This document shows, one piece after another, positions 2,201 to 19,707 of a DNA stretch of 52,838 nucleotides. The first letter of the stretch is position 1, and each line of letters starts with the position of its first letter. The stretch lies in NCBI GenBank assembly GCA_019058365.1, contig JAHPZE010000030.1:1-52838 (forward strand), written 5' to 3'. The translations under genes were made by a program, and so were the position numbers. Under the pieces are notes generated by a model, which was not told the DNA's origin, ran no database searches, and was given only the letters and a program-made list of their open reading frames with translations. The DNA comes from Promethearchaeota archaeon (GTDB lineage Archaea > Asgardarchaeota > Lokiarchaeia > Sigyniarchaeales > SOKP01).

Positions 2201-2277
2201 ATCTTTTAAATTAATTTTCAAATTTAAGGGAAATTATAATACATAACAATTTATGTATCCTTTAATTTTCATAAACA

Positions 2278-3255
2278 ATGCTAGGTGAATTAATTGCAAT
2301 ATTAGCCGTCCTAACGTTTGTTGGGTCAAATGCAATTTTTCGAAAAACAGAACATGAAGCTAGCCCGACTTTTATCAATTTCTTTCGAACAGGTATAGGG
2401 ACTTTAACATTCATTTTGGTTGTTTTATTTCTAAACAAATTAAATCTTATATTTTTAATACCATGGGAATTATGGTTTATTTTAATTTTGAGTTTCGTTT
2501 TTGGTCAAGTAATCGGTGATACAGCTTACTTTACTGCCCAAAAGGAACTTGGTACCACCATTGCTCTCGCTATTTCAATGACATTTCCTCTCTTTACTTT
2601 CATATTATCTCTAATCTTTCTTAATCAGCCGTTTAAAATTAATTTGTTTTTATCTCTAATTTTGATTGGAATTGGAATTACAATTATTGGAAAATCTAAA
2701 ATAAACTCTGATAATTCAAAGTTAGAAAAAGGTACGACCTTACGAATACCAATAAAAATCAAATTTCAGGAAGCTTTTAAAAAGGATTTTGTGAAGGCTT
2801 TAGGGTTTTGTTTTACTGCAGCTATTGGGTGGGCTATCGGAGCTGTTATAATTGAATATGCAACCATTCGAATAGACCAAATTATACTTATTAAAGAACT
2901 TAGTTCTACTATAGGAAACGTAATTAGATTTCCATTTGCATTGTTGATTTTAGGTTCAATGGTGTTTAGAGAAAATCATTTAAAGAATAAAAAAGATAAT
3001 TCGCTAAATCAAAAGATATCTCTTCATTCATGGATATTCCTATTAATTGCTTCTATAATAGGTACTTCAATAGGCGCATATCTATATACTGAATCCGTGC
3101 ATATAGCTGGGGCAAATATAGTGTCCTTAATTGCAAGTGCCGCCCCATTGTTTGCTCTTCCATTAACTTATTTTATTAATAAGGAAAAAATAACGAAATT
3201 GGGCGTATTAGGAGTAATTTTAACTATTTCAGGAGTAATTATGGTTCTATTCTAA
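2278..3255 (+). CDS. DMT/EamA family transporter
   Basis: About 10 TM helices in two repeats; PLFT/PLFA...FINKEKIT. Confidence 0.85.
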   Translation: MLGELIAILAVLTFVGSNAIFRKTEHEASPTFINFFRTGIGTLTFILVVLFLNKLNLIFLIPWELWFILILSFVFGQVIGDTAYFTAQKELGTTIALAISMTFPLFTFILSLIFLNQPFKINLFLSLILIGIGITIIGKSKINSDNSKLEKGTTLRIPIKIKFQEAFKKDFVKALGFCFTAAIGWAIGAVIIEYATIRIDQIILIKELSSTIGNVIRFPFALLILGSMVFRENHLKNKKDNSLNQKISLHSWIFLLIASIIGTSIGAYLYTESVHIAGANIVSLIASAAPLFALPLTYFINKEKITKLGVLGVILTISGVIMVLF

Positions 3256-3269
3256 ATATTACTTTAACC

Positions 3270-4349
3270 TTATTCATAATATTGTTCAAATAATTTTATT
3301 TCATCTGAGATATTTTTTAATTTAGCTATCTCCTCTTTTGAGGGTGGTTCTTCCTCATAGATATTATAAAGTTTTAATTTAAGATTTTTTCTTACTTCCT
3401 TTTCTAATTTATTAATCTTCTGTTTTGTAGCAAAGTATTTTATTAACTTAAATTTTAGCTTTGTAAGGCTCTTTTCCCACTCCTTGGTAAAGACTCCATC
3501 TTGAATTTCTTTTAGTATCTGTTCCATCTTATCCCTAAGAGGTAATTTTCTGAATCGTATACCTCTGCTCATAGCTCCATATTGACTTGTTTGAGAATGA
3601 AAGTCTACTTGTTTTATCAACCCTATATCTGCCATCTTCTTATATGTATAAGACATCTCATTACTCATGTACATTTCAATTAATACTGCTTCAGGAGGGT
3701 AACCCGCATCAATTAAAGTGTAAATACTTGATAATAAAACCCTTCCAAAAGCGGGTCCAAATCCTTGTTCATTAAATAAATCTAATTCAGCTTCTTGTTT
3801 GAAGGATAGCATTATTGCACCTTTTTTTAACGTACCAATTCCTTTAGCTAAAGCAAGCAAGATTTCTTTTGCGCGTCCAGAAGCATCTTGTTCAATTGCG
3901 ATGAAACTGAAAAATCCTTCATTTTTGAGAAAATTCTCTCTCACACCAACACCGATCATTCTAGGAGCAATCAGCAATACATCCACATTCTCAGGAGGTT
4001 TTAATAGATTAAAACCAATATTATATCCACTCGCAAAAACAATAACCGAATTAACTCTTAAATGGGGTTTAATGCTCTTTTCAAAAATCTCATTCATAAT
4101 CTCATCGGGGAGGAGTATAAAGACTATATCTGATTTTTTCGTAGCTTCTTCGATTGTGACAACTGAAAAATTATCATTTAAAGCAAAATTTTTGTATTTA
4201 TCCTCAATATTACCCACAATTATGTTTAAACCCGAGTCCCTTAAGTTAAGAGCTTGAGCTCTCCCTTGATTTCCATACCCTATAATACTTATAGTCTTAT
4301 TTTTGATATTTAAAAGATCTCCATTTGTTTCATGAAAAATTTTTACCAT
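3270..4349 (-). CDS. ilvC: Ketol-acid reductoisomerase (class I)
   Basis: IIGYGNQGRAQALNLRDSG, LLPDE, FASGYN, EAELDLFNEQ, SQTSQYG. Confidence 0.9.
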   Translation of the reverse strand: MVKIFHETNGDLLNIKNKTISIIGYGNQGRAQALNLRDSGLNIIVGNIEDKYKNFALNDNFSVVTIEEATKKSDIVFILLPDEIMNEIFEKSIKPHLRVNSVIVFASGYNIGFNLLKPPENVDVLLIAPRMIGVGVRENFLKNEGFFSFIAIEQDASGRAKEILLALAKGIGTLKKGAIMLSFKQEAELDLFNEQGFGPAFGRVLLSSIYTLIDAGYPPEAVLIEMYMSNEMSYTYKKMADIGLIKQVDFHSQTSQYGAMSRGIRFRKLPLRDKMEQILKEIQDGVFTKEWEKSLTKLKFKLIKYFATKQKINKLEKEVRKNLKLKLYNIYEEEPPSKEEIAKLKNISDEIKLFEQYYE

Positions 4350-4411
4350 ACCGATACTACCTCAAAAAAAAGGATTAAATCATAATCTGTAAATATATAA
4401 ATTATATCTCT

Positions 4412-5020
4412 TTAAGTAAGCTTATCATAATCTAATCTATTTTTTTCTAATATTTTAATGACAAGTTCTTTAAAGATCGATTCAATATTATAGTTTTCTT
4501 TTGAAGACGTTTTATAAAAATCAACTTCCGCATGCCTTTTCATAAACCTATCGATTACTAAACTGTCAACCCTCGCCTTTTCTTCCGCGGTTTTTACAAG
4601 ATCACTTTTAGCTCCAATAACCATCCTTGGAGTATTTGCTTGATTATACTCACCAAGTCTTTCATACCACCAGTCTAATCTTAGTAACGTTTGAATATCC
4701 ACAAGATTAAATACCATAAAAATTCCATTAGCCCCATTGATATAATATGGAAACAATTTTTTGAATTGTTCACGTCCACCAAAATCCCATATACTGATTC
4801 GAACAAAAGTATTGCCACCATTGGCAACAACAGGAATATCTTTTGTGTAGAATTCAATTCCTAGTGTTTCTTTTGTATTTACATCAAATGTGTTAAAACA
4901 CAATCTCTTAGCGATACACGTTTTACCGACTCTTTCCTGACCTAAAATGCAAATCTTGAAAATATAAATTGGCTTTTCATTGTCTTCCATCTCAGAAAGT
5001 GGTTTTATTTGATTTTTCAT
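4412..5020 (-). CDS. Rab-like small GTPase (Ras superfamily)
   Basis: G1 GQERVGKT, G2 TLGIEF, G3 WDFGG, G4 AKSD, G5 TSSK. Confidence 0.9.
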   Translation of the reverse strand: MKNQIKPLSEMEDNEKPIYIFKICILGQERVGKTCIAKRLCFNTFDVNTKETLGIEFYTKDIPVVANGGNTFVRISIWDFGGREQFKKLFPYYINGANGIFMVFNLVDIQTLLRLDWWYERLGEYNQANTPRMVIGAKSDLVKTAEEKARVDSLVIDRFMKRHAEVDFYKTSSKENYNIESIFKELVIKILEKNRLDYDKLT

Positions 5021-5131
5021 GAGTATATTTGTATATTTTCAAATTTAAAAAATCTAAATCTAATAATTAAAGATAAAAGTTGGGATTTATAAATTTTGAC
5101 GATATAAATATAAATCGGTGTTAAATAAGTT

Positions 5132-5593
5132 TTGAATGAAAAAGATTTATTTCCTGATTATGAATTAAAAACAACTCCAGATACCATCTATGACTATTTA
5201 AGAAAGCCAGATTCATTTATTTTTAAGATTCTTGAGGAAATTGGCCAACCTAGTCTTAAGAACTTAAAACTTATTTTAGAATATTTTAATAAATACAAGG
5301 TAGTAGCAGAAATAAATCCTGGTAGATATCGAAATGGCAATTTAGTATTAGGCGCCGACCCACATCAGTATTACCCCTCAGAAGAGGAGATACTGGTTTC
5401 TGAATTAGGGAAAATGATAACCGAGATTATAAGCTCTAACTCAAAAAAGGAAATTAATACTTTTAAAACAAAGGAAGGAATTCCATCTCTAAAAGTAGTA
5501 TTCACTGAAATTTTTTTCCGGCATATAGATGTAATGGGCTCTGGTCGATTTTTCTATGCTGAAAAGAAATCTGAAATAGAAATAAGATTATAA
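5132..5593 (+). CDS. Hypothetical protein
   Basis: 153-aa ORF filling the gap, protein-like composition, no motif recognised. Confidence 0.6.
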   Translation: MNEKDLFPDYELKTTPDTIYDYLRKPDSFIFKILEEIGQPSLKNLKLILEYFNKYKVVAEINPGRYRNGNLVLGADPHQYYPSEEEILVSELGKMITEIISSNSKKEINTFKTKEGIPSLKVVFTEIFFRHIDVMGSGRFFYAEKKSEIEIRL

Positions 5594-5612
5594 CTAGTAA
5601 TACTGTTCTTAA

Positions 5613-6698
5613 CTACCTTCTTATTGAATTTATATTAATCGCTACAGTTTTTAAATATATTTTCCCCTTATTACAAATTTCTACGTAAGAAGGTTGTATA
5701 TGTTGCCACGAACCATCATTGATTACTTTTACTTGTAGGTTATTAATAGTTGCCAAAGATATGTCCTTAATATGAGAATGACCATATATTAGGTGATTAA
5801 TTTTGGAAAAATCATATTTATCATCCTCTAAAAACTCTTTTATTTCATCTAAATAGTAATCAGGTTTACTCACATGTTGCCACTTTTTCATTATCCGCAT
5901 ATTTGCTTTAATTAAATTAAATTCCAAAATATTCAATTCCGAAAAAACGGCGTCCACAGATTCGATTGACTTATTTTTTAACTTAGCTAATTCTTCTTTC
6001 ATGAATTTAAATGTAATAGGCTTAATTTTTCTTCCATTCTTAATTATTTCATTCCAGAAATAATCATAAGTTTCTTTTACTTCAAACTTATTATTCGAGA
6101 TTAATGATTTCCATAATTGCCCTACAAAAAATCGATGTATCTCACTATCAAATTGATAACCATGAGCCATAAAACATCTATAATCGCTATCTAAATCAAG
6201 GCCTTCAATTTTCACTTGATCAATGGGATTTTTTTCAAGTTGCTCTCGTGTATTATACATTAAGAGCATATCCTCATTGTTCCATTTTTTTAATAACATA
6301 AATTGATAGTATAATTCGTCATTAAACAATTCCTTGAAATTAGTATTTCTAAACTTGGTTAAAAATTTCTCTTTTCGACTTTCAAATTTCTTATCATAGT
6401 CTCCTGTAACGGGAATTTCATGATTTCCTAATAAAAATACAAGGTTCATTTTCTTTTTAATCTCAAGCAAAAGTGTAAAAATTGCTTGAACTTTTTCCCT
6501 ATTCAAAAGAGTTCTAGGAAGATCAGTACATAAATCAATGAAATCCCCTAATATTATAAACGCTTGTAATTCATTTCCAAATTCTCCATTAATAATACGC
6601 TTTAAAAATTGAATAAATAAGTCTCTTTCACAATCTAATGAACCTAAATGTACATCTGAAACCACTAAAATTTTTGGTTTATTTTCACCCATTTTCAA
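5613..6698 (-). CDS. Calcineurin-like metallophosphoesterase
   Basis: SDVHLG, LGDFID, GNHE, AHG, GHSH motifs. Confidence 0.85.
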   Translation of the reverse strand: MKMGENKPKILVVSDVHLGSLDCERDLFIQFLKRIINGEFGNELQAFIILGDFIDLCTDLPRTLLNREKVQAIFTLLLEIKKKMNLVFLLGNHEIPVTGDYDKKFESRKEKFLTKFRNTNFKELFNDELYYQFMLLKKWNNEDMLLMYNTREQLEKNPIDQVKIEGLDLDSDYRCFMAHGYQFDSEIHRFFVGQLWKSLISNNKFEVKETYDYFWNEIIKNGRKIKPITFKFMKEELAKLKNKSIESVDAVFSELNILEFNLIKANMRIMKKWQHVSKPDYYLDEIKEFLEDDKYDFSKINHLIYGHSHIKDISLATINNLQVKVINDGSWQHIQPSYVEICNKGKIYLKTVAININSIRR

Positions 6699-6872
6699 TT
6701 ATTCCTTTTATACATAAATTGTCAATATCTATCTATAATAGAATACGGTAGAATTATTAAAGAGAATTGTCTAAATATAAAATAAAAAATTTATTTTAAT
6801 GGTTTTCTTGATTCAATAATAAAACAAAAAATGATTGAACTTGTGCATATAAAAAGAAAATATTAATCGAGA

Positions 6873-8147
6873 GTGAAGATAATGTCTTCTGAATTTGAGA
6901 AAAATTTGGACAAATATGCCGAAGTAATCATTAAAGTTGGGCTAAATTTACAACCTGGGCAACGTTTACTAATCGGGGCACCCATATTTTCAGTTAATTA
7001 TGCACCAATTGAATTAGCTCCATTAGTAAGATTAATTGTAGCTAAAGCTTATAAATTAGGCGCTAGATTTGTGGATGTCATGTGGGTTGACTATCAATTA
7101 CAGCTATTAAGATATAAATATGCCCCTAAGGATTCATTTGATGAATTTCCTTCATGGAGAACCAATTTAGTAGTTGATATGGGTAATTCTGGAGATGCAA
7201 TACTCGTTATATACGCAGAAAACCCTGATTTACTAATTAATGAAGATTCTGAATTAGTAAATATAACACAACAGACATTTTTCAAGCATATGGCACCTAT
7301 CATGGATTTAGTTGTACAAAACAAAACGAACTGGGCAGTCATCACTGCTCCTATAGATGGATGGATAGATAAAGTTTTTCCTGATATCTCACCAGATAAG
7401 CGGAAAGATAAATTTTGGAATACAATCTTTCATATTTGCCGTATAAAACATAAAGATCCTGTTTCTGCTTGGCAAGATCATGTAAATCAACTTGCTTCTA
7501 GATGTAATTATCTTAACCAAAAGGAATATAAATCATTGAAATTTACTGCAACTGGAACTAATTTAACAATTGGTTTACCAAAAGAGCATATATGGCATAG
7601 TGGTTTTATGACAAGTCAAAATGGTATCAATTTTGCAGCAAATATACCAACTGAAGAAGTTTTTACAATACCTCATAAAGATAAAACTGAAGGTGTTGTA
7701 AAAGGTACAAAACCAATCTACTATAGTGGAAGCTTAGTAGAGGATTATACACTCACATTTTCTGAAGGGAAGATTATAGAAGCAGTTGCTAAAAAGGGTG
7801 AAGATTTACTACATAATTTAATTGAAACAGATGAAGGTGCGGGTTATTTAGGGGAAATTGCGCTTGTTCCACATAGCTCACCTATTTCACAATCAGGATT
7901 ACTCTTCTATAATATTCTTATTGATGAAAATGCTTCAAACCATATTGCTTTAGGTCGAGGGTATAAATTTAGCTTTAAAGGAGGCGAAACTTTATCTGAT
8001 GAAGAATTTACAGCACTAGGGGGAAATACTAGCTTTATTCATATTGATTGTATGTTTGGCTCGAATGAGATGAATGTAGATGGTATATTGAAAGATGGAA
8101 CCATTGAGCCAATTATGCGTGAGGGAGAATGGGTTTTTGAGGTATAA
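6873..8147 (+). CDS. Aminopeptidase, M29 (AmpS/AmpT) family; probable true start ATG 6882
   Basis: ANIPTEEVF, LGEIALV, LIDENASNHIALG, SFIHID. Confidence 0.9.
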   Translation: MKIMSSEFEKNLDKYAEVIIKVGLNLQPGQRLLIGAPIFSVNYAPIELAPLVRLIVAKAYKLGARFVDVMWVDYQLQLLRYKYAPKDSFDEFPSWRTNLVVDMGNSGDAILVIYAENPDLLINEDSELVNITQQTFFKHMAPIMDLVVQNKTNWAVITAPIDGWIDKVFPDISPDKRKDKFWNTIFHICRIKHKDPVSAWQDHVNQLASRCNYLNQKEYKSLKFTATGTNLTIGLPKEHIWHSGFMTSQNGINFAANIPTEEVFTIPHKDKTEGVVKGTKPIYYSGSLVEDYTLTFSEGKIIEAVAKKGEDLLHNLIETDEGAGYLGEIALVPHSSPISQSGLLFYNILIDENASNHIALGRGYKFSFKGGETLSDEEFTALGGNTSFIHIDCMFGSNEMNVDGILKDGTIEPIMREGEWVFEV

Positions 8148-8499
8148 AAAGATAAGTAATAATTCAAGTTTTTTTTTGAAATATAAAATTTATAATTAAG
8201 AAAAATATTTTATATCTGATTTTAAAGCTTAAATGTATTTTTATATTAAATTTTGGTTCATTACCTTATTCCAAAATTTATCTCATACACGATTTATGAT
8301 AAATTGAATAATAGATTTGATAGTATTAATATAGATTACTAATCAGTAGTTACATGATCTAGTTATCTGAAATCAAAAATTGATCAATTCTAATTAACTG
8401 AATTCACTAGTAAAAAATTTGTTAATTTTTTCCATGAATTTTTTTTGTCGACTGAATTTGATTGATCACATTTATCGGATTCATGATGATCAACCAACA

Positions 8500-8585
8500 C
8501 ATTTAAATATAAGAAATACTAATTAAAATGTAAATACCTTTAAATAAAATTAATAGAATTTAATAAAAAATTAGTGGAGGAATAA
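8500..8585 (+). promoter_or_regulatory. Candidate TATA box (TTTAAATA) and GGAGG Shine-Dalgarno upstream of the histone gene
   Basis: catttaaatataag near 8500; gtggagg at about 8574-8580, 8 nt before the ATG. Confidence 0.5.
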
Positions 8586-8588
8586 AAA

Positions 8589-8795
8589 ATGGCTGCATTT
8601 GCATGGAGTCCACTACGGGCTCTAATGAAGAAAGCTGGAGCTGAAATCGTAAGTCGAGCCGCAGTTGATAAATTAATGGATTATTTAGAAGAATATGCAA
8701 AAACCTTAACTGGCTGTGCGCTTGATATTGCCAAACACTCCGGCAGAAAGAAAGTTACTGCTGCAGATATGAAAATCGCTATCGGTTTAATTTAA
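8589..8795 (+). CDS. Archaeal histone (HMf-like, tail-less)
   Basis: 68-aa histone fold: KKAGAEIVS...AKHSGRKKVTAADM. Confidence 0.92.
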   Translation: MAAFAWSPLRALMKKAGAEIVSRAAVDKLMDYLEEYAKTLTGCALDIAKHSGRKKVTAADMKIAIGLI

Positions 8796-8813
8796 GCCGT
8801 TAATTGCGATTTC
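8771..8813 (+). other. RNA stem-loop spanning the histone stop codon
   Basis: Outer stem AAATCGC(8773-79)/GCGATTT(8806-12); inner stem CGGTTTA(8783-89)/TAAGCCG(8793-99); compensatory changes in the repeat copy at 12571-12616. Confidence 0.7.
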
Positions 8814-8827
8814 AATATTTCAAGCAA

Positions 8828-8845
8828 TTTTTTTATTTTTTTTTT
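8828..8845 (+). terminator. Oligo-T terminator candidate after the histone gene
   Basis: tttttttattttttttt run about 30 nt after the stop. Confidence 0.55.
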
Positions 8846-8965
8846 AATTACTTTAAACCTGAATCTTTACTTTTACTATTTATATGAATGTATACTGTTA
8901 GTTTTATATATTAGTTTAACAGAATAAATTCATATGGTATTTTTTAAACAAGGTGAAAATTAAAG

Positions 8966-9082
8966 TTGTTCTTAGACAAATTTAAAGAATCTCCTAAGGA
9001 TAAACTTGTTATATTAATAACGATAATTGGTTTAGCAATAGTTTTATTGACTTAAATACTAATATTCATACCTATTGAAGCT
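8966..9082 (+). pseudogene. Truncated copy of the 185-aa membrane protein gene at 12770
   Basis: MFLDKFKESPKDKLVILITIIGLAIVLLT* ; TAA at 9053-9055 where the intact copy has TAC; homology stops at 9082. Confidence 0.9.
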
Positions 9083-9123
9083 TCAATTCTATTGATGCAA
9101 GTAATCTTGTCGTCTTTTTTGGT

Positions 9124-10545
9124 TTATTGATTGATAAATGGAGGTTTGAATCCTTCTGGAAATGGTGAGATATAAGGATTATCTTTAATTTTTTCTTCAA
9201 ATTCGCGTTTTGCCTTATTAATTATTTCAGGATTGTTCATAAATTCTATAGCGGATAACGCTAATATTTTCGCTGCAGTTAGCATTCCTTTATGACCTAT
9301 ACTCATACCAGACGTGCATACATTTTGCCAAGAATGTCCTGGAGACCCCATAATTTGACAAGTTGTAGCAATTTCACCTAAAGGTGTAACTCTTGAGACA
9401 TCAGAGACATCTGAAGAACCTGGCACAATTTTTCCTTTTCCAATTCCGGGAAGTATCATCCGATTTAATGGTTGTTCAAGAATTTGCTTAGCCATATCAC
9501 GTAAATTAGGAGGAATAAAGCGAGAAAAGGCTTCCATTGAACCGGGTGGCAAAGTTTTTTTGAGTTTTTCTGCAAATTCCCGATCTTCTTTATTAAACCT
9601 AGGGGCCCCCACCAATCTCATTTTAGAAAGAAGAACATTCCCAATTACATCATTATGTAAAGGATTATACATTCCCCCTAAAAAATTTATTACCATTTTA
9701 GTTTCTGTCATCAATGCTGCCCCTTCAGCTATTTTAATAACACGTTTATAAAGTTCCTCCACTGAAGAACGCTCAGGAGCTCTAATAAAGTAATATACTT
9801 CAGCTTTATCTGGAACAACATTAGGTGCCTCTCCACCATTTGTAATTACATAATGGATCCTAGCATCAGGAATAATGTGTTCTCTCAAATAATTCACTCC
9901 TACATTCATTAATTCTACAGCATCTAATGCACTTCGTCCATTCTGTGGATCAAAAGCAGCATGAGCAGTACGACCAAGAAATCTGAATTTTACAGAATTA
10001 ATCGCTAATAATGAAACATCATTTATTGCATTCATAAAAGCAGGATGCCATGATAAAGTAATATCGACATCTTTAAATGCCCCTGCATTAATCATATAGC
10101 CCTTACTATTGAATTTTTCCTCAGCAGGGCAACCGTAATATCTTATTGTACCATTAGCATCTCCTGAAAGAATAGCTTCTTTGACCGCAAGAACAGCTCC
10201 TAGTGCCCCTGTACCTAATAAATTGTGTCCACAGCCATGACCTGATGCTCCTTCTTTTAGAGGTCTTTTTATTGGTTCACTAATTTGACTTAAACCGGGT
10301 AATGCGTCATATTCACCTAATATAGCAATTACAGGTTTATTATTACCATAACTAGCATAAAATGCTGTTGGTATGCCTGCAACATTTTTTTCAACGAAAA
10401 ATTCAGCCTTCTCTAATGTTTCTGCTAATAGAGTTGATGATTTATACTCTTCAAAGCCAACTTCTGCAAATTCCCATATTTTATCACTAATTTCAATTAA
10501 TTCTTGCTGATTTTCATTAATCCAATTAGCATATTTTTTTGACAA
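9124..10545 (-). CDS. M20 amidohydrolase, AbgB-like (p-aminobenzoyl-glutamate hydrolase B family)
   Basis: LGEYDALPG, GHGCGHNLLG, GCPAEE, WHP, GSSDVSDVS, PGHSWQ. Confidence 0.88.
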   Translation of the reverse strand: MSKKYANWINENQQELIEISDKIWEFAEVGFEEYKSSTLLAETLEKAEFFVEKNVAGIPTAFYASYGNNKPVIAILGEYDALPGLSQISEPIKRPLKEGASGHGCGHNLLGTGALGAVLAVKEAILSGDANGTIRYYGCPAEEKFNSKGYMINAGAFKDVDITLSWHPAFMNAINDVSLLAINSVKFRFLGRTAHAAFDPQNGRSALDAVELMNVGVNYLREHIIPDARIHYVITNGGEAPNVVPDKAEVYYFIRAPERSSVEELYKRVIKIAEGAALMTETKMVINFLGGMYNPLHNDVIGNVLLSKMRLVGAPRFNKEDREFAEKLKKTLPPGSMEAFSRFIPPNLRDMAKQILEQPLNRMILPGIGKGKIVPGSSDVSDVSRVTPLGEIATTCQIMGSPGHSWQNVCTSGMSIGHKGMLTAAKILALSAIEFMNNPEIINKAKREFEEKIKDNPYISPFPEGFKPPFINQ

Positions 10546-10632
10546 ACTTATTCCCTTTTTTTAATAGGTGCGTTTCCAATAATATAAATAATTAAAAAAA
10601 ATATATATGTTTTATATTATAATTAAATTTTA

Positions 10633-11946
10633 CTATTGTTTCTTAGTTTTATGCTCATATATTTTTGAATCGAGTGTCAAAAACGCTATTATGCCTACAT
10701 TTGAAAGAATTGCCATAAATATAAAAACAACAGAATAAATAAGATATGTATCTGAAGTAATTTCTGACATTAATTCAAATATTATTCCAGTGAGAGTCAA
10801 TCCTAACATCGTCCCAAAATTAACAAATGAAGCACTTAGAGCAAAATAAGAACTCCGAACCTCATGATATTCTCTTGCATATCCACTAGCAATAGCACCA
10901 AAACTCGAGTGACTCCAACCACTCGCAGATCCTACTATGATTACAAAAATTAATAATATTACTACAGAAACAGGAATTAGTAATAAAAGTAAAGAACCTG
11001 TTATAAGAACTAGTGACAAATAATAAGCAAATCTTCTTGATTTTAAATCTGCAACATAACCTCCGAGAAGAGCACCTAATATTATTCCTCCTCCTACTAT
11101 TGATGATATAAAAGCTATTGGGTAATATAAATTAATTTCTGTTTCCGTCATTTCAAGAGTAGCACCTTCAGCCGCAATTATACCTGCACGGATCAAAATG
11201 TAAAGAGAAATAACTGAAAAAATGACTCCATCAATAATCGCAGTAAAAAAAGAAAAAATGAATAGTTTCCAGTTTTTACCTTTGCTGATTATTAATTTAA
11301 GATTACTGAAGTAATTTACTTTTCTTGGTTCTTCAATATCTTTAATATAAAGAATAAATATCGCAAAAACTATAGTTAAGATTCCTAACATAATAAATAT
11401 TAAATCTAATGGCATTATATACATAAAAAGTAAAATTGCCGGACCACCAAGCACAATTCCTACAGATCTAAATCCCCATGTTGCCCCTTGAATACGACCT
11501 AATTGATTTTTAGGAGTAATATCGAGAATAAACCCATCTATCACAGTATCTGACATAGCAATTCCGAACATAGAAAAGAAACCCACTAAAATAATAATTG
11601 CAATAACTGCACTAGGATTTGCACTAACTAGAATAGGTAAAAACATCACAACTAATCCACTAAAAAATAATGCTCCAAGAATCCACGGTTTTCTTCTTCC
11701 TAGTTTTTTAATACCATACTTATCACTTAAAGCACCAAAAATTATTTTAATTATGAAGGGGATCATAATTATTGATCCTAAGAAGGCAATAGTAGAAGCT
11801 TCTATCGAACCTAGTATTTCAAGTAAATAAATTGGTATAATAACCATAAACATACTTTGGGTTATTCCTTGTATTAAATAAAGCAGCGAGAAAATTAGAA
11901 TATAAATATTTTTAAAGTGATATTCCTTTTCTTCCAAAATATCCAC
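10633..11946 (-). CDS. MFS transporter (AmpG/acetyl-CoA transporter-like)
   Basis: 12 TM helices; LYLIQG, SDKYG...GRRKPWI, DTVIDG. Confidence 0.8.
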   Translation of the reverse strand: MDILEEKEYHFKNIYILIFSLLYLIQGITQSMFMVIIPIYLLEILGSIEASTIAFLGSIIMIPFIIKIIFGALSDKYGIKKLGRRKPWILGALFFSGLVVMFLPILVSANPSAVIAIIILVGFFSMFGIAMSDTVIDGFILDITPKNQLGRIQGATWGFRSVGIVLGGPAILLFMYIMPLDLIFIMLGILTIVFAIFILYIKDIEEPRKVNYFSNLKLIISKGKNWKLFIFSFFTAIIDGVIFSVISLYILIRAGIIAAEGATLEMTETEINLYYPIAFISSIVGGGIILGALLGGYVADLKSRRFAYYLSLVLITGSLLLLLIPVSVVILLIFVIIVGSASGWSHSSFGAIASGYAREYHEVRSSYFALSASFVNFGTMLGLTLTGIIFELMSEITSDTYLIYSVVFIFMAILSNVGIIAFLTLDSKIYEHKTKKQ

Positions 11947-12084
11947 CCAGATATATTAAATACATCTTTTAAATAGTTATTTAAATCTCATTTTTAGTTG
12001 ATTAGTAAATATTTAGGTTATTTATATTAATAAAGATTTAGGTTATTTATTTATTAAAACGCAGAGTTTGAAGTAAGAGAGAGA

Positions 12085-12483
12085 ATGATAAGACACATAA
12101 TCGAAAATTTGAAGTTAGAAATGCCCAGATTTTATAATGATGATGCAATTCAAGAGATTCTTAAAGAAGAATCTAGCTTACGTAATGAATTATATTCAAT
12201 AATAAGCTCTATTTTAAAATATTTTGCTACTTTCGACAATCGTAATTTCGCTAAAATGCTTTTAGAATATTTAAGATTTTATAATATGTTAAGAAGTTTT
12301 GCTATTCTACCTCACATTAAAAATCAAAAAGATTATGAGAGATCATTCACATATCCACCTTTAAGTATTGAAGACTTGAAAATTGCTGAGGTAATAAAAT
12401 TACTTCCGTTAAAGTTAAGTACGTTTGAGAAAAAATTAAAGAATAGAGTGAAAATTCTAAAAGACACCGATTCCAACTTTTGA
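12085..12483 (+). CDS. Hypothetical protein, possibly a truncated or degenerate PIN-domain protein
   Basis: C-terminal LSIEDLKIAE...LSTFEKKL resembles the PIN LSxxD...LxTxDxxL pattern; the N-terminal acidic strand is not evident. Confidence 0.4.
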   Translation: MIRHIIENLKLEMPRFYNDDAIQEILKEESSLRNELYSIISSILKYFATFDNRNFAKMLLEYLRFYNMLRSFAILPHIKNQKDYERSFTYPPLSIEDLKIAEVIKLLPLKLSTFEKKLKNRVKILKDTDSNF

Positions 12484-12553
12484 ATCCTTTCTTACTTATT
12501 GCTAGAATGATAATTAGAATTATCAGTCACTTTTAATTTTCCTTCTTTTTTAG

Positions 12554-12595
12554 ATTGTCAAACACATTCTGAAAATCGCTATTGATTTAGTGTAA
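12554..12595 (+). pseudogene. Remnant of the 3' end of a histone gene
   Basis: attgtcaaacac matches histone attgccaaacac; CTG AAA ATC GCT ATT GAT TTA GTG TAA (LKIAIDLV*) matches MKIAIGLI*. Confidence 0.75.
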
Positions 12596-12886
12596 ATCAT
12601 AAATTTTTTCGATTTCAATATTTCCAGCAATTTTTTTATTTTTTTTTTAAATTACTTTAAACCTGAATCTTTACCTTTACTATTTTTATGAATGTGTGCT
12701 GTTAGTTTTATATATTAGTTTAACAGAATAAATTCATATGATATTTTTTAAACAAGGTGAAAATTAAAGTTGTTCTTAGATAAATTTAAAGAATCTCCTA
12801 AAGATAGACTTATTATTTTATTAACAATAATCGGTTTAGCAATAGTTTTATTAACCTACATACTAATATTCATGCCTATTGAGGCT
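12571..12886 (+). repeat. Direct repeat copy 2
   Basis: Aligns with 8771-9082. Confidence 0.95.
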
Positions 12887-13327
12887 GCTGTTCCAACTTA
12901 TGGAATTCTAGATTATGAATTTGCCTGGACTTCTGATAGAGTGGAATTAATCCTCTCAGTATGGGGTTCAGATGGAATAGTTAGACAGACGTTTGCAATA
13001 TATTGGGATTTTTTGTATATTGTTGGATATGTTTCTTTAGCTCTTGGATTAATTTTGCTTGTATTAAGGAGATCAGAAGGAAAAATTCAAACTCTTGGTC
13101 TTTATTTTACCCTAGCACCTTTTCTGACAGGGATTTTTGATATAATCGAGAATATTAATTTACTTATAATGCTTGGGACTCCTACAGCCATTTTAACTAT
13201 AAATCCACTTATTGCATCAATTAGTGCGTTAATAAAGTTCAGTTTCTTATTTGCATCGATATTTTATTTTGTAACAGCAATGATTATCCTAGCTATAAAT
13301 AGAATTCAGAAGCGTGAGAATAAATAA
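12770..13327 (+). CDS. Hypothetical 4-TM membrane protein
   Basis: TTG start with AAGGTGA Shine-Dalgarno; hydrophobic helices; FDIIEN motif. Confidence 0.8.
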   Translation: MFLDKFKESPKDRLIILLTIIGLAIVLLTYILIFMPIEAAVPTYGILDYEFAWTSDRVELILSVWGSDGIVRQTFAIYWDFLYIVGYVSLALGLILLVLRRSEGKIQTLGLYFTLAPFLTGIFDIIENINLLIMLGTPTAILTINPLIASISALIKFSFLFASIFYFVTAMIILAINRIQKRENK

Positions 13328-13401
13328 TCTTATTTTTTTTAATTTATTACTAAATCTACTTACTTTCTTTTTTTAAATTCACAAGAAATTTTATACTATT
13401 T

Positions 13402-13584
13402 ATGGTATTAAATGCTTGTTGTAATAAATGTGGAAGTACCATGATAAATAATGACATAGTACGTTCGGATGGTGGTAATTCAACTCAATATCAATGTTCT
13501 CAATGTGGATATTGTTATGAATCAGGATTTCGGTATAACACATTAATTAAACAATTCGTAAAATATGTACGATTTAGTCCATAA
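13402..13584 (+). CDS. Small zinc-ribbon protein
   Basis: CNKCGS...YQCSQCGY, two CxxC knuckles in 60 aa. Confidence 0.7.
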   Translation: MVLNACCNKCGSTMINNDIVRSDGGNSTQYQCSQCGYCYESGFRYNTLIKQFVKYVRFSP

Positions 13585-13682
13585 AGGTCTTGTAATAATT
13601 AATTTCTTTATTTTATTTGCTAGGATATGTACTAGGGTGTAATCTTATAAAACTCAAATTATATATTTGAATTTAACTTAAT

Positions 13683-13796
13683 ACTCTACATCAATTGGCA
13701 AGAACAAATGATTTAGTAAAACTCGAGGAAATGAAATTTTCCTGCAGAGAAAGATAAATCTACTAGAACAATAAAAAACATTAGAGAGTGTTTTTT
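13683..13796 (+). ncRNA. Candidate structured RNA or leader
   Basis: Nested stems ACTCT/AGAGT, GATTTA/TAAATC, CTC/GAG, AGGAAA/TTTCCT; TATA-like CTTATAAA upstream; T-run after. Confidence 0.35.
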
Positions 13797-13997
13797 AATT
13801 CAGAGAGTGAATGTCTTCATATACAACGGTTATCAAACAAATGTTGTGGAGCACAATGTGGATTTTATAAATCAAAAAATCCAATTAGAAAGAGAATTAA
13901 TAATGAATAATTTACTAACAAAATATAGGATAAATTTTCAAAATTTAATTCCTGTAAAAAATAAAAAGAAAGAAAATCCTAAAGCCGTGACAAAGCT

Positions 13998-14036
13998 GTC
14001 TTTGAGTATCTCGTTTTTTTCATACTCATTTCATTC
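13998..14036 (-). promoter_or_regulatory. Eukaryote-type SECIS candidate in the 3' UTR of the selenoprotein
   Basis: Minus strand AUGA-AAUGAGUAUG-AAAAAAA-CGAG-AUACUCA-AA-GA: AUGA-N10-AA-N18-GA with stem UGAGUAU/AUACUCA. Confidence 0.6.
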
Positions 14037-14582
14037 TTAATTAGGATTTATTAGATATTTATCAATTATTTCTATCATCATTTCAATTGAAGGTCTATCA
14101 GTTTTATCTTTTCCTATATATTTCCAGATAATTTCACTTTTATTATCGATGAGAAACTTACTTGGTACTGCTTGTTTTGTTTTATAATTTTTTCCTCCCC
14201 CAGATGCAAACCAGTAAACGCCATATTCTTTCGCAATTTTAGCACCTCTATCAGAAATAATATCTATTTTAAAACCATTCTCTTCTTTAAATTTTCTCAA
14301 AAGTCTGACGCTATCACTTGCAATAGAGATAATCTTAATCTTTCGATTTTCAAATTCAGAAATATGCTCAGTTAACAGTTTTAAATGCTTTTTACAATGA
14401 CTTCACCAATTACCGCGAAAAAAATCTATTAAAACGCCATCGTAAGTTTGAAGAAGATCATTTAGATTCATTGGATTCTCGTAAATATCTACAGTATTTA
14501 TCATTGGCGCTTTGGTCTTTATTTGAATCCCCTTTGGTCTTGGAGGTTCTTTATTGTTAATAACCGTTATTAAACACACCAT
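14037..14582 (-). CDS. Peroxiredoxin-like (AhpC/TSA, thioredoxin fold) selenoprotein with a UxxC motif
   Basis: One continuous frame except TGA at 14403-14405: ...VLIDFFRGNW-U-SHCKKHL...IISIASD...IISDRGAKIAKEYGV...AVPSKFLID; the ORF track shows only the C-terminal 87 aa. Confidence 0.88.
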
Positions 14583-14674
14583 TCTAAAGTAAATTTTATA
14601 AATATAAATTAAGATGGAAAATTTAAATTTTACTTAAATTTATAACTAAAAAAATTAGATGATCCTTCTCATTC

Positions 14675-15199
14675 TTAACTTGAATACTTTTCGAAAAGAA
14701 TTTCTGTAATAACATTGAAAGCTTTTTCTACGTTCTCCCCTGTTTTAGATGATAATTCCACGAAAGAAGCAAGATTATATTTTTTTGCTGCTAAAATTCC
14801 ATCATCGCGAGTTACTGCTCGAAATTCATTTAAGTCTACTTTTGATCCAATTAACATTATCGGTATATCTCCTGCATGCTCTCTAATTACTTGTGTCCAA
14901 TCTGGTAAATGATCTAACGATGTTTGATTAGTAATGTCATATAAAAAAAATGCTCCATTTGCACCTTTGCTATATTGAGAGAGTAGAAATCGAAATCGTT
15001 CTTCCCCACCAAAATCCCAAATTTGTAATTTTACTTTTTTATTTTTAAAGGAGGTTGTCTTACTATAAAAATCTACACCAATAGTTAATTTAAGGTCCTC
15101 CATGAAGAATCCAGAAATATATCTCATCGTTAATGAAGTTTTCCCTACAGATGCATCTCCTAGCATCATAATTTTAAAAGTATAATCGTAATCAGTCAT
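14675..15199 (-). CDS. Rab-like small GTPase
   Basis: GDASVGKT, TIGVDF, LQIWDFGGEERF, SKVD, LSSKTG. Confidence 0.93.
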   Translation of the reverse strand: MTDYDYTFKIMMLGDASVGKTSLTMRYISGFFMEDLKLTIGVDFYSKTTSFKNKKVKLQIWDFGGEERFRFLLSQYSKGANGAFFLYDITNQTSLDHLPDWTQVIREHAGDIPIMLIGSKVDLNEFRAVTRDDGILAAKKYNLASFVELSSKTGENVEKAFNVITEILFEKYSS

Positions 15200-15334
15200 A
15201 ATTTTTGATGATTCGGATATTTTGAGGGCTTTTCTCGAATTTCAATAAATACATTTGAAATTATAATAGTAATATACCTAATATTAATTAATTTTTGTCT
15301 AATTTAAAATTAATAATTTCACCAATCGTAAAAT

Positions 15335-15976
15335 TCATATTAACAAAATAAGAACATTAAAAAAAGAATGAGCGATTGAACAAGGAATTAGGGAATAATT
15401 AAAATACACATAAATAAGAGATAACATCAATCCAAATGTGAAATAATAACCGAAAAATGTTATGCTTGTAGTTAATGGTACTAAAAAAGGAGGTATATGA
15501 TATATTGTAAAAAAAATTGATGATATGATAAGTGAATAGGTTAATTTCAATTTAGTTTTCAATTTCTGTATTAGAAAACCTCTGAAAAAAGCTTCTTCGC
15601 AAGGACCAATAATTATTATTTGCAAGATTACTAGGATTATTAGTTGAATATAATTGGGTTGAATAGGAGATGTATTAATAGTTCCTTCTTGCCCAAGTTC
15701 GACAAATTCAGTGCTAAAAATATTTCCTATAATAAAATCCCGGAAAAAAATTATGATGTAATTGCCAAAAAAAAAGAAAATGATTCCAAAACTTAAGCCT
15801 GATACTATTTTAATAAAGATATCTTCATTTTTTTGAAATCCCATTCCTTTTATAGCATCCTTAAAAGGAATTTTTTCCAATTTGCTAGATAGTAGAGCAG
15901 GAACAACAATAAAAAAAATTTCAAAGAGCATTAACCCTATCAAGATCCAAGGGTTTTCTCCCAAATTTATTGCCAT
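15335..15976 (-). CDS. CPBP (Rce1/Abi, CAAX-type) intramembrane glutamic protease
   Basis: EEAFFRG, FTIYH and AHSFFN motifs intact. Confidence 0.88.
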   Translation of the reverse strand: MAINLGENPWILIGLMLFEIFFIVVPALLSSKLEKIPFKDAIKGMGFQKNEDIFIKIVSGLSFGIIFFFFGNYIIIFFRDFIIGNIFSTEFVELGQEGTINTSPIQPNYIQLIILVILQIIIIGPCEEAFFRGFLIQKLKTKLKLTYSLIISSIFFTIYHIPPFLVPLTTSITFFGYYFTFGLMLSLIYVYFNYSLIPCSIAHSFFNVLILLI

Positions 15977-16069
15977 TTTTCTTATAATTATGTTTTCAAA
16001 TAATCCTCATAAATCAAAAAATTAAATATCTCATTATTATTATTATTAATTCTACTTTTTGTACTTTTA

Positions 16070-17347
16070 ATGATTAGGGATAAGTTCATAAACACAGAAT
16101 TAAAATCTTCTGATCTCTATAGTCATAGTAAAGAGATTAATAAAAATCATGGACTAACGAAAGAACAACTTTTATTAAAGGATCTTAAAGCTATTGCAAA
16201 TGAGTATTTAGCACTTGAAAAATTAAAACAAAATTTCATTGGTATAATTTTGAAAAATCTTGATTCTTTAGATTTCTCAAAATTCATTGATTATCCCAGA
16301 TTTTACATAAAAGAAGATTTTTTAAAACGAGAAGTATCTTCCGCTAATATTAGGGGTTTAAATGTAGTGAGTGTTGATGGAAGTTCGGTGACTAAAAAAT
16401 TTATGAACGTTGACTTTTCATTTTTAAAAGCAATCGCTACAAAATATTATTTTCAAAAAAATTATGTTGCAAAAATTGTATATTATCCCGATCTAAATGG
16501 TTTTAATAATTATTATGTACAAGCAAATTTCCTTAATCAAGATGAAACTACGGTAGAAACTAAAATTTCGATTGACATGAATTTCATGGAGATCAATCTT
16601 CTGAATAATATGATAAGAAAAACTCCTGAGATTGATATGATAATAATTGATGGATCGATTGTTATTATGCCAATCAACTTATTATTTTCTAAAGATCCAG
16701 AAATATCGAGAAAGTATGACAAGCTTCTAAAAGAATATCATAATTTGTATTCATATTGTAAGGAAAATGGAATATTGTTAATTGGCTCAATTAAAGATAC
16801 CAGAACTTCTGCTTTAACGCATCTTTTACAAGAATCTATCCAATTATTGAAACCCAGCTATTCAAATCTAACTGATTTTCTTAAAATAAATTATCGAAAA
16901 GTAATGGAATTTTTCTCAGATCTAGACTTGTTTAACCGTGTATTGAAGAAGAATGAGAGATCTTGTATTTTTAACTGTAAAAGAGAAATTGATAAAATTA
17001 GAGATACTGGAATCAAAAAAGAAATACCATATTATTTTCCCCTATCATTTTATGCATTTTACTTAAAGACTACACGATTTGATACACCTTGTAGGATAGA
17101 ATTTTTTATGGATGAAAAACATTTATTTAAAAAAGCTTCTGAGAAAGCAGATTTAATATCTTCAATATTAATGCCAATATCAAGCTTGAATGAACATTAT
17201 GGTTTACCAATCCCTCAAATTGAAGCTCATAAAAGGGCTGTATTTAAACCAAAAGAAGTTGATTTATTACTCAATAATTTAATTAGGACGTTAAATACCC
17301 ATGGTGTTTCTTTATTAGAAAAAAGAAGAGATCGAAGACCTTTCTAA
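16070..17347 (+). CDS. nurA: NurA-family nuclease
   Basis: VSVDGS, IIIDGS, GSIKDT, YGLPIPQIEAHKRA. Confidence 0.8.
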   Translation: MIRDKFINTELKSSDLYSHSKEINKNHGLTKEQLLLKDLKAIANEYLALEKLKQNFIGIILKNLDSLDFSKFIDYPRFYIKEDFLKREVSSANIRGLNVVSVDGSSVTKKFMNVDFSFLKAIATKYYFQKNYVAKIVYYPDLNGFNNYYVQANFLNQDETTVETKISIDMNFMEINLLNNMIRKTPEIDMIIIDGSIVIMPINLLFSKDPEISRKYDKLLKEYHNLYSYCKENGILLIGSIKDTRTSALTHLLQESIQLLKPSYSNLTDFLKINYRKVMEFFSDLDLFNRVLKKNERSCIFNCKREIDKIRDTGIKKEIPYYFPLSFYAFYLKTTRFDTPCRIEFFMDEKHLFKKASEKADLISSILMPISSLNEHYGLPIPQIEAHKRAVFKPKEVDLLLNNLIRTLNTHGVSLLEKRRDRRPF

Positions 17348-18039
17348 TGAGTTTTATATTGTAGCTTGTTTAAAAAAATATCCTCGAAAAATATATGTTG
17401 TTTTTCCACTATTTCATTTTCATAATTTAAATTTTTAATTTTTTTATTTAATTTTAGTAAGTCAGTCCTACTTGATGTTATGCAATAAATACTGTGATCT
17501 TTCTTCAAGTTTAGAAAAAGTTTGGCATTTTCAAGAAAATTGATTAAAGTTTCATATCCTTTTAATCCACCATCCCAACTATAATCCATAATTTTGTTAT
17601 TATAATTTTTGTTTATTAATTGTGAGGATGGCAAGTAGGGAGGATTAAAAACAATAATATTAAAAGAATGTTTTAAACGTTCTGGAAAGGATAGAAATAA
17701 ATCAGATTGGAAAAAAATGATTTCTTTATTGACATTATTCGCTCCTTCATTTATTTTAGCACACTCTATTGCTTCTTTTAAAATATCTGAAGCATATATT
17801 TTAGGATTAAAATTTAGGTATTGTACTTTAATTAATTGAAAAAAAATAGCAATTATCCCTGTTCCAGTACCTAAATCTAAAACATTTTCAATCTCACTAA
17901 TAGGTATACCATCAAAATTATTTTCATCAATATTACGTTTGAAATAATCAATTAATAAAAAACTGTCATCAGAAGGGGTATAAACATTTTTATAATCACA
18001 ATTAATTATTGGATCGGGTATGAAAGGAATGGGTATCAC
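17344..18039 (-). CDS. HemK2/PrmC-like protein N5-glutamine methyltransferase
   Basis: VYTPSDDSFLL, VLDLGTGTG, FNPPY, WDGG; usual position after rsmA. Confidence 0.88.
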   Translation of the reverse strand: MIPIPFIPDPIINCDYKNVYTPSDDSFLLIDYFKRNIDENNFDGIPISEIENVLDLGTGTGIIAIFFQLIKVQYLNFNPKIYASDILKEAIECAKINEGANNVNKEIIFFQSDLFLSFPERLKHSFNIIVFNPPYLPSSQLINKNYNNKIMDYSWDGGLKGYETLINFLENAKLFLNLKKDHSIYCITSSRTDLLKLNKKIKNLNYENEIVEKQHIFFEDIFLNKLQYKTH

Positions 18040-18056
18040 TTATTCTTAATTTTCTT

Positions 18057-18902
18057 TTAACAATAAAACAATTTGCTAATCTCAATAAGCTCTTCTATAT
18101 TAAAACTAAAAACCTTTTTATTCTCAAAGTTATTTTCATATAAAATTTTAACAATTTTTTCTCTTGTATATTCAGTATTGTTTAGATTTTTTAAAAAATA
18201 TCCTATAGCATTTACAATATTTTTGTTCTTATAGGGCATTATTCCAGCAACAAATTTTAAAAAAAAGTTAATTGAACCCTTTTCTGAGAGGAATGGATGA
18301 ATATCATCTCGAGGTATAATTTTAATAAGTGATAACGCAATTTTTGGAATAGGGTAAAAGCTTTTTCTTGAAATATCTGATATTAAAATGGGGTTCATAA
18401 ACGCGTTAACACCAATACTGATCCGTGAGTATTCTTTATAATTTCCTGATAGAAAAATTCGATTAGCAATATTTTTTTCTAAAAGTAATATACCTTTAGG
18501 TGAATTAATATTAAAAAAAATCTTATCTATAAGTGGTCCAGTAATAGTATAAGGAATATTAGAAATAACTTTGTTGTGTTTTGGTAATTCTATTTCAAGT
18601 ACATCTCCATGGATAATCTCAATATTATCATAAATAGATAGCTTTTCTTTCAAATATGAACAGAGACGATTATCAATCTCAATACCATAGATTTTTTTAC
18701 TTAAATCTGCTAATTCTTCTGTTAACGTTCCTAAGCCGGGTCCAATTTCCAAAATAACATCATTCTGAGAGACATCAGAACATTTGATAATCTTCTTTAC
18801 AATATTTGTATCAGTTAAAAAATTTTGACCCAGTTTTTTGTTTGGAATAATTTCCAATTGCTTTAAAATGAGTTGTATTTCTTTTATATTCATAAAACTC
18901 AT
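18057..18902 (-). CDS. rsmA: 16S rRNA adenine dimethyltransferase (KsgA/Dim1)
   Basis: KKLGQNFL, LEIGPGLGTLT, IEID, SNIPY. Confidence 0.95.
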   Translation of the reverse strand: MSFMNIKEIQLILKQLEIIPNKKLGQNFLTDTNIVKKIIKCSDVSQNDVILEIGPGLGTLTEELADLSKKIYGIEIDNRLCSYLKEKLSIYDNIEIIHGDVLEIELPKHNKVISNIPYTITGPLIDKIFFNINSPKGILLLEKNIANRIFLSGNYKEYSRISIGVNAFMNPILISDISRKSFYPIPKIALSLIKIIPRDDIHPFLSEKGSINFFLKFVAGIMPYKNKNIVNAIGYFLKNLNNTEYTREKIVKILYENNFENKKVFSFNIEELIEISKLFYC

Positions 18903-19543: not shown

Positions 19544-19707
19544 TACTACTTGTTTTTTTTACTTTTCCGATTACCATTTCAAAATTTTTATTGTAATGAA
19601 CTACATAATTAGATGGGATTGTTCATTAGAAATATAGAGATTGAGACTTATAAATTCTTCGAATTTTAAAATCAAGAGTCTAAATTTTATAATTGGGATA
19701 AGACAGT

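Follow-up and report, generated by a model that had tools for sequence, protein, structure and literature searches.

The question raised by the locus described here is how a small metabolic cassette can come to lie between two diverged copies of one chromosomal segment when nothing in or beside it resembles a mobility gene. The locus lies on contig JAHPZE010000030.1 (C2), a stretch of 52,838 nucleotides that is called the window here. The contig belongs to the genome of a Promethearchaeota archaeon of the Lokiarchaeia (GCA_019058365.1; G000 below), which amounts to 4.74 Mb in 54 contigs and was assembled from a metagenome, as were all the genomes compared with it. The window is AT-rich and codes for Ras-family GTPases and archaeal histones. 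Between a histone gene and a conserved gene for a membrane protein it carries an accessory islet of 3.5 kb, consisting of an M20-family amidohydrolase gene, an MFS transporter gene and an orphan open reading frame (ORF) of 132 codons (orf132), and this islet is bracketed by a direct repeat whose copies are called L and R (Table 1). Our analysis suggests that islets of this kind are probably exchanged between Lokiarchaeial species by homologous recombination, without a mobility gene of their own.

L and R can be aligned over 317 columns with 90% identity (8770-9082 and 12570-12886), weak homology extends on to codon 41 of the membrane-protein gene (9088 and 12892), and the sequence is present in exactly two copies across the 4.74-Mb genome. 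The identity is 78% at the histone end, 96% in the spacer and 89% in the membrane fragment. L includes the final eight codons and the stop of the intact histone gene, followed by the spacer and a dead 5′ fragment of the membrane-protein gene, and R begins with a histone 3′ remnant of eight codons and a stop (12570-12595) and continues through the spacer into the live membrane-protein gene. The initial annotation of this DNA had described the same layout, and our coordinates agree with it. The genes on either side are conserved: the amino acid identity of the histone within the genus is 95-98.5%, and the membrane-protein gene, which has no match to a Pfam or NCBIfam family, is present in 42 of 61 related genomes. 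A predicted RNA hairpin covers the histone stop codon, and its counterpart in R forms a weak fold (-6.6 kcal/mol, z = -0.96). The duplication has its left edge at the base of the hairpin in L, which may be a chance coincidence.

Table 1. Features of the islet at the histone locus (window positions) and of three further islets in the same genome (contig:position).
Feature	Position	Strand	Description
Intact histone gene, left conserved flank	8589..8795	+	68 aa; Pfam PF00808 CBFD_NFYB_HMF 2.9e-10; NCBIfam NF043032 archaea_histone
Left repeat copy L	8770..9088	+	histone 3′ end, spacer, dead membrane-gene 5′ fragment
Hairpin over histone stop codon	8771..8813	+	RNA fold -14.4 kcal/mol, z = -4.2
Dead 5′ membrane-gene fragment	8966..9088	+	41 codons, TAA at codon 30 (9053-9055)
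Core M20-MFS cassette	9105..12040	-	blastn homology to L081 and L084, from 9105 to 12030-12041, 86-88%
M20-family amidohydrolase	9124..10545	-	473 aa; TIGR01891 1.3e-75, PF07687, PF01546
MFS transporter	10633..11946	-	437 aa; MFS_1 PF07690 1.2e-27
Orphan ORF orf132	12085..12483	+	132 aa; no family
Spacer ending at right junction	12484..12569		motif GATTGTCAAACACATTC, then TGAAAATCGC; same junction in G021
Right repeat copy R	12570..12892	+	histone 3′ remnant, spacer, start of live membrane gene
Intact membrane-protein gene, right conserved flank	12770..13327	+	185 aa
Islet on C24	C24:106753 and 110797 (to 111111)		315-bp repeat, 92%; 4 genes including an SMC-like ATPase; empty in G027
Islet on C52	C52:38593 and 44237 (to 44530)		294-bp repeat, 86%; 5.3-kb cargo; empty in G031, G027, G003
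Islet on C12	C12:89420 and 92810 (to 93089)		278-bp repeat, 84%; 3.1-kb cargo; empty in G031, G008, G021

A simple explanation of such a structure would be a chimeric assembly of two strains, which could appeal to the metagenomic origin of the genome, to its contamination estimate of 6.6% and to a doubled read depth over the M20 region. The read-level check covered the histone-locus islet and used contigs built from four sequencing runs (including X1 and X4), which are short and break inside the repeat. Contigs of X1, probably the source sample, match 8487-8924, 8947-9181, 10459-12728 and 12751 onward with zero mismatches, and both cargo junctions are bridged by them. The depth in X1 is 81-109 throughout except for the M20 gene, and the double depth there is accounted for by a second M20 copy on contig C43, whose flanks match G027, the closest relative of G000 (91-93% DNA identity), as the rest of the genome does. 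X4, a run from another study, spans the left junction at 97% identity, and the left junction is also present in the genome G031. In G021, where the background DNA identity to G000 is about 78%, a single contig of 5.3 kb (C196) carries histone, spacer, M20, MFS, truncated orf132, histone remnant, spacer and membrane gene. For the junctions a chimera is thereby refuted, and we give it practically no weight for the locus. The initial annotation had named reads revealing a two-strain chimera as the observation that would overturn its interpretation, and what the reads yielded were bridging contigs at even depth. Two apparent skips in the runs (9204 to 13001 and 8849 to 13326) rest on at most 25 letters on one side and were discarded as noise; neither is the joint that a deletion between L and R would leave. 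When JGI metagenome contigs were scanned for the exact pattern of the right junction, no match was found.

The locus without the islet is found in relatives. In G027 the membrane gene follows the histone after 178 nt, and the duplicated segment corresponds to positions 182-498 of this empty site; the site is likewise empty in G003, G020, G017, G009 and G014, with gaps of 150-200 nt. Elsewhere in the genus the same spacer holds other cargoes, namely a 289-aa multi-pass membrane protein in G011, a homologue of it in G016 and an unrelated 199-aa ORF in G008, and no flanking repeats were found around any of the three. Both the empty site, seen in G027 and five other species, and the alternative cargoes are things that the initial annotation had proposed to look for. 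In total the histone-membrane pair occurs in about a dozen species, and its spacer is found in four states, being empty or occupied by M20-MFS, by the 289-aa protein (in either orientation) or by the 199-aa ORF. The spacer is thus a hotspot of the recombination-driven type, with conserved flanks and variable content. The G011 cargo (L053 8372-9238) and its G016 homologue (L054) are 280-289 aa long, have a weak match to DUF2298 and lie in opposite orientations. In G014 the orthologous histone gene (G014:C38, L052, 8251-8483, minus strand) begins with ATC and has a 29-nt insertion after codon 45, which lies between copies of a CTAGA direct repeat and contains a small hairpin; its excision restores the frame, and it could be a mini-intron, a scar of the kind left by miniature inverted-repeat transposable elements, or a mark of a pseudogene.

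The divergence of the cargo indicates that it moves between species. Between G000 and G031 the number of synonymous substitutions per synonymous site (dS) is 0.068 for M20 and 0.033 for MFS as compared with 0.25-0.40 for 9 of 10 flanking genes, and between G000 and G021 it is 0.40 and 0.14 as compared with 0.69-1.3, so that the cargo lies below the flanks by a factor of 3-10 in both comparisons. The cargo identity is a mosaic, ranging from 84 to 99% per 100 nt. An M20 gene of more than 85% identity was found in only 3 of 54 genus genomes, and G027, which is nearer to G000 than G031 and G021 are, has no M20 at all. Since more distant species are filled, the closest relative is empty and the cargo dS is low, vertical descent with loss cannot explain the distribution.

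These data bear directly on the possibility that the duplication is old, arose in place, was inherited vertically and has decayed neutrally, the empty relatives having lost the islet by recombination between L and R. Such a history would fit G021, in which L and R are only 65% identical and the dead fragment is almost gone, as well as the left junctions, which differ by deletions in dead DNA, and dead copies could simply have kept ancestral states. It is contradicted by the low cargo dS in both comparisons and by the empty site of G027 when the more distant G031 and G021 are filled. Moreover, L of G000 is only 7-11% from the G027 empty site (93% identical overall, with 93.5% for the spacer and 88.6% for the membrane fragment), a distance far too small for a duplication that predates the split from G021. 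An old duplication with decay is therefore disfavoured, and we consider it very improbable. The initial annotation had held that its view would fall if all relatives shared the arrangement with neutral divergence; the relatives include empty ones, and the cargo has a low dS.

The junctions suggest a single origin of the bracketed structure. The right junction is base-for-base common to G000 and G021, reading GATTGTCAAA(C/T)ACATTC and then TGAAAATCGC, and the left end of the cargo, at 9085, is common to G000, G021 and G031. To the left of 9085 the three genomes differ: G000 has 41 membrane codons, G031 has 23 membrane codons and 157 nt of other sequence, and G021 has about four membrane codons and 85 nt of the other sequence seen in G031. 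These differences are best read as independent deletions in non-functional DNA. The approximately 85 nt that adjoin the cargo left end in G031 and G021 (L049 and L036), and that are absent from G000, encode on the minus strand, together with the cargo end, what is left of the C-terminus of another gene downstream of M20, which ends in ...IRVVSGISKSPYQKRRKD. The G031 site lacks the histone, orf132, R, the membrane gene and the next small ORF, and its cargo is joined from window position 12087 to 13793; the full membrane gene was not found anywhere in this genome, which is 97% complete. This repeat-free arrangement may be the state of a first, disruptive arrival or the product of a later deletion. 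In the place where the histone would be expected, upstream of the spacer and of the dead membrane fragment, G031 has a 267-aa ORF with no family match (G031:C57, L049, 10301-11101). As to orf132, it is truncated in G021 and absent from G031, and apart from the truncated G021 copy no homologue was found in G000 or in 53 genus genomes. It was considered as a clue to the source locus and set aside for that reason; it is also unrelated to the ORF at the same position in the contig L084 discussed below.

The two repeat copies appear to have different ancestries. The histone remnant in R and the next 30 nt are of the type found in G021, G003 and G020, and the histone end of L and of G027 is of another type, which differs in the last codon and has a deletion. 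The membrane fragment in L is identical to the G031 fragment over codons 1-23, and its states K13, I18, I35, GAA38 and S40 occur in live membrane genes of other species, with only AAG11 (shared with G031), TAA30 and ATT41 peculiar to L; R13 and Leu18 are common to R and G027. These allele types suggest that the inner parts of the repeat belong to a travelling haplotype and the outer parts are native. The left part of L and the right part of R look native, and the left part of R and the right part of L look foreign, a pattern that a double crossover or decay would give equally. The initial annotation had arrived at alleles that diverged in different lineages and were then joined by recombination, arguing from the duplicated codons. 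Its tally is exact, with 13 differences in 39 codons, of which eight are synonymous, four conservative and one nonsense, and the different ancestries are borne out, but the codon count alone is no proof. Simulations of neutral change under several mutation spectra gave P = 0.001-0.02 for at least eight synonymous changes among 13. This is weaker than it looks because R is a live gene, and about half of the path between L and R was under selection anyway; with R under selection we estimate that about 38% synonymous changes would be expected, and P would be roughly 0.07.

No dedicated machinery for movement was detected. Pfam and NCBIfam searches found no recombinase or transposase domain in the three cargo ORFs or in the flanks, where only M20, MFS, histone and M29 families were recovered, in agreement with the initial annotation, which had listed an AbgB-like amidohydrolase, an MFS transporter and a 132-aa ORF without an integrase. 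The islet flanks are syntenic core genes. No tRNA gene lies within window positions 1-20000, and there is no inverted repeat at the cargo ends among the 28 repeat pairs listed. An integrative element was rejected, as no site-specific recombinase was found and the repeat, at 317 bp and 90% identity, is not a short identical core of an attachment (att) site. A transposon or insertion sequence (IS) was also rejected, there being no transposase and no terminal inverted repeats, and a duplication of 317 bp instead of 2-15 bp. Tandem segmental duplication was rejected because the cargo is missing from the neighbourhood in all empty-site genomes and so is not native DNA.

The same cassette is found at other loci. 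The M20-MFS pair (window 9105-12040) occurs with other neighbours in the JGI metagenome contigs L081, L082/L083, L084 and L092 at 82-88% nucleotide identity, and M20 alone occurs at further loci, including contig C43 of G000. The C43 copy (G000:C43:21744-23162; L048 9745-11163) is 98.65% identical over 1409 nt, its homology stops at the ends of the gene, and G027 is empty at this site (346 nt compared with 1655 nt), where no duplication is seen. In L084 (JGI Ga0315553_10000431) the cassette and an unrelated small ORF lie between two direct repeats of a parvulin gene (3739-4033 and 7462-7757; 296 nt, 73% identical). The outer parvulin copy is intact, and the inner one has a frameshift and two stops and abuts a tRNA-Gln gene (3662-3734). 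The corresponding locus in G000, identified by synteny in a tblastn comparison of L084 with contig C40, has a single parvulin gene and no cassette (G000:C40:10325-10579). A search of the genus for the L084 empty site by way of a neighbour gene was uninformative, the query belonging to a large paralogous family.

Islets of this architecture recur within G000. When the genome was compared with itself, 57 direct and 6 inverted two-copy repeats were found whose copies lie 0.3-15 kb apart. The direct repeats show a second mode of length at 250-350 bp (16 pairs), a range in which there are no inverted pairs, and the local repeat sequences are unrelated to each other. Three of these pairs bracket further islets that have clean single-copy empty sites in relatives (C12, C24 and C52, Table 1). 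At C2, C12 and C52 the repeat spans the intergenic region and the ends of both neighbours, both of which stay intact; at C24 it lies inside the intergenic region. A scan of the four ORFs of the C24 cargo gave no integrase domain; the cargoes of C12 and C52 were not scanned. At C12, where the background identity to G031 is 87-89%, the left flank (at least 1.8 kb) and L with its dead fragment reach 96%, and R is 86% identical to G031. The dead fragment at C12 is thus a recent copy of the allele of another lineage and not a decayed partner copy. The initial annotation had proposed that the conserved histone might act as a landing site akin to a tRNA 3′ end; this idea is not borne out, as the same architecture recurs at unrelated loci and the other cargoes of the histone spacer lack flanking repeats.

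Several other candidates from these searches were not counted. For the pairs at C41:15164, C41:23922, C24:82694 and C17:8350 the relatives give no clean empty site. The pair at C44:7294 and 11004 is a permutation relative to G008 and is better read as a remnant of a tandem duplication: its repeats (C44:7294-11311) bracket two 570-aa genes, in the order repeat-A-B-repeat as compared with B-repeat-A around a single copy in G008, which suggests a tandem duplication that was resolved differently or a circular permutation. An outgroup-sharing test at C52 was not used because an outgroup matched 11 of the 25 states found in L alone and 7 of the 14 found in R alone, which is too near chance; the outgroups are AT-rich and 60-78% identical. 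Two conserved elements of 138 nt near the C24 islets are neither tRNA (ARAGORN) nor Rfam families and are unrelated to each other, and no link was found that would make them part of the islets. One of them (G000:C24:81414-81551) is relatively GC-rich, has long terminal complementarity and is present in about five copies in G000, with copies in relatives at 86-91% identity.

Taken together, the lack of a mobility gene, the conserved flanks, the exchanged cargo, the mixed ancestry of the repeat copies and the precise empty sites point to host homologous recombination as the probable engine. According to this explanation, an accessory islet sits in the variable spacer between the conserved histone and membrane genes, bracketed by a 317-bp target duplication. 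The bracketed structure would have arisen once and then passed among species of the genus by host homologous recombination, with the duplicated target and the conserved flanks serving as the homology for transfer. The outer, live parts of the repeat would be native, and the dead parts on the inside, namely L's membrane fragment and R's histone remnant, would move together with the cargo. Precise removal of the islet would follow from recombination between the two copies, which fits the empty site in the closest relative G027. As for the origin of the duplication, we rank first a single crossover (Campbell or ends-in integration) of a circle with about 300 bp of homology to the target, although even within this explanation it falls a little short of being the probable route. 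A direct duplication of the homologous segment flanks the insert, as is required of a single-crossover product, and such an integration would yield exactly this product with both neighbours intact; it could have followed a first, disruptive arrival. The structure that the initial annotation had called attL/attR-like is genuine; integration of a Campbell-type circle is one recombination route among several that would lead to it.

Several observations weigh against exchange by homologous recombination as a full account. The occurrence of the cassette with a target duplication at a second, unrelated locus (L084) suggests that the insertion process may itself make the duplication, and the narrow range of repeat length at four loci (278-317 bp) is not explained by recombination alone. 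L and R also share derived spacer states with respect to G027, which would call for gene conversion between the copies or for a donor very close to G000. Finally, no circular form, excision joint or empty-site contig was found in the four runs, whose short contigs cannot phase L and R.

The most serious competitor, which we regard as unlikely but well worth keeping in view, is that a target duplication of about 300 bp results from insertion itself and that homologous recombination only spreads the product. This could happen by template switching, in which the target is copied as far as a point p2, the cargo is copied from elsewhere and synthesis returns to a point p1 about 300 bp upstream, or by the fill-in of two nicks about 300 bp apart made by a trans-acting factor. 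The possibility is supported by the excess of direct over inverted pairs with its 250-350 bp class, by the four islets (C2, C12, C24 and C52) whose unrelated repeats share a length of 278-317 bp, and by the 296-bp parvulin duplication around the same cassette, and the gene-sized M20 copy at C43 fits copy-and-paste. However, the repeat copies are 8-16% diverged although the closest relatives lack the islets, the C12 dead fragment matches the allele of another species at 96%, the M20 copy at C43 and the other histone-spacer cargoes have no duplication, and the 16 pairs include several that are permutations or small paralogous genes. We also know of no candidate enzyme for a target duplication of this size. 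Alternatively, the structure may have arisen in one chance illegitimate event and been transferred later as linear DNA, by double crossover in the flanks or by homology-facilitated illegitimate recombination, with no circle involved. We think this slightly less likely again. Double crossover at flanking core genes is an established route for element-free hotspots (PMC5635113; PMC3787668), the tract of at least 1.8 kb at C12 that is 96% identical to G031 looks like a long import, and the histone is 99.5% identical to that of G027. What linear transfer leaves unexplained are the duplications of about 300 bp at four or more unrelated islets, and the tract shared with G031 has its boundary within L, close to where the membrane fragment begins, and not in the longer flank.

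The shared length of the repeats may also reflect survivorship under homologous recombination. Repeats much shorter than about 250 bp may recombine poorly, long or identical ones may delete the islet fast, and the repeat would in addition have to span the intergenic region for both neighbours to stay alive; such a filter may explain both the length and the divergence of the copies. It is also conceivable, though we would advance it only tentatively, that Lokiarchaeia have a general, integrase-independent way of gaining islets that makes or needs a target duplication of about 300 bp, with the histone-locus islet as one instance. Circularised chromosomal DNA might be integrated by a RadA-mediated single crossover, for example, or the insertion might be templated and duplicative.

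Two observations concern the neighbourhood of the histone gene. The histone is identical to that of G027 at 206 of 207 nt (dS 0) when neighbour genes have a dS of 0.09-0.49, and its dS with respect to G021 is 0.43 as compared with 0.7-1.3 for neighbours, a sign of strong codon constraint or else of recent recombination. An M29 aminopeptidase gene (6873-8147) separates the histone from the neighbour gene at 5613-6698 in G000 alone; in G003, G020, G011, G016 and G017 the distance from the neighbour to the histone is 500-1290 nt without this gene. Its presence or absence makes both sides of the histone sites of insertion and deletion, and no flanking repeat was seen around it.

To our knowledge, very little has been described of gene exchange in Asgard archaea beyond viruses, integrase-borne elements and giant transposons. 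The papers on Asgard mobile elements PMC8813620 and PMC11529989 make no mention of direct repeats, target-site duplications or homologous recombination. The islet studied here is a plain metabolic cassette that moves between Asgard species without a mobility gene and leaves a recurring scar, a diverged duplication of about 300 bp. If this scar is general, it would offer a computational handle with which to count and date gene gain mediated by recombination, and it could be used to test whether sex-like recombination between diverged genomes shapes gene content. If the general mechanism holds true, pairs of diverged repeats would record, across the whole genome, gene flow between species among the closest prokaryotic relatives of eukaryotes. 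For annotation, small gene fragments adjoining such islets are to be regarded as scars and not as genes.

In Campbell-type pop-in and pop-out, circular DNA integrates by a single crossover, as suicide vectors do or the F plasmid does through a shared IS. The islet resembles this in that the homology is directly duplicated around the insert, the copies may be hybrids, precise loss is possible and no dedicated recombinase is needed. Unlike F-plasmid integration through an IS, the homology is unique chromosomal sequence, and integration by this route does not account for the way in which a cargo would first acquire about 300 bp of a new target. Integrase islands at tRNA 3′ ends likewise pair an intact gene at one end with a displaced 3′ remnant at the other, and their empty site is single-copy. 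In contrast to them, the islet has no integrase, tRNA or identical core, and its 317-bp repeat, 90% identical, covers the 5′ end of the next gene as well. Homology-facilitated illegitimate recombination is similar in that one-sided homology lets foreign DNA in by host functions alone, but it usually deletes recipient DNA and has been described only in bacteria (PMC3240628). The closest likeness is to the integrase-free hotspots of bacteria (PMC5635113) and the minimal mobile elements of Neisseria (PMC3787668), in which the same conserved flanks enclose differing content without an integrase or transposase and the cargo is more similar between species than the flanks are. Those systems are bacterial and have no target duplication, whereas the islet has a diverged duplication of about 300 bp in an Asgard host, and it is this added target duplication that sets it apart from the known integrase-free hotspots.

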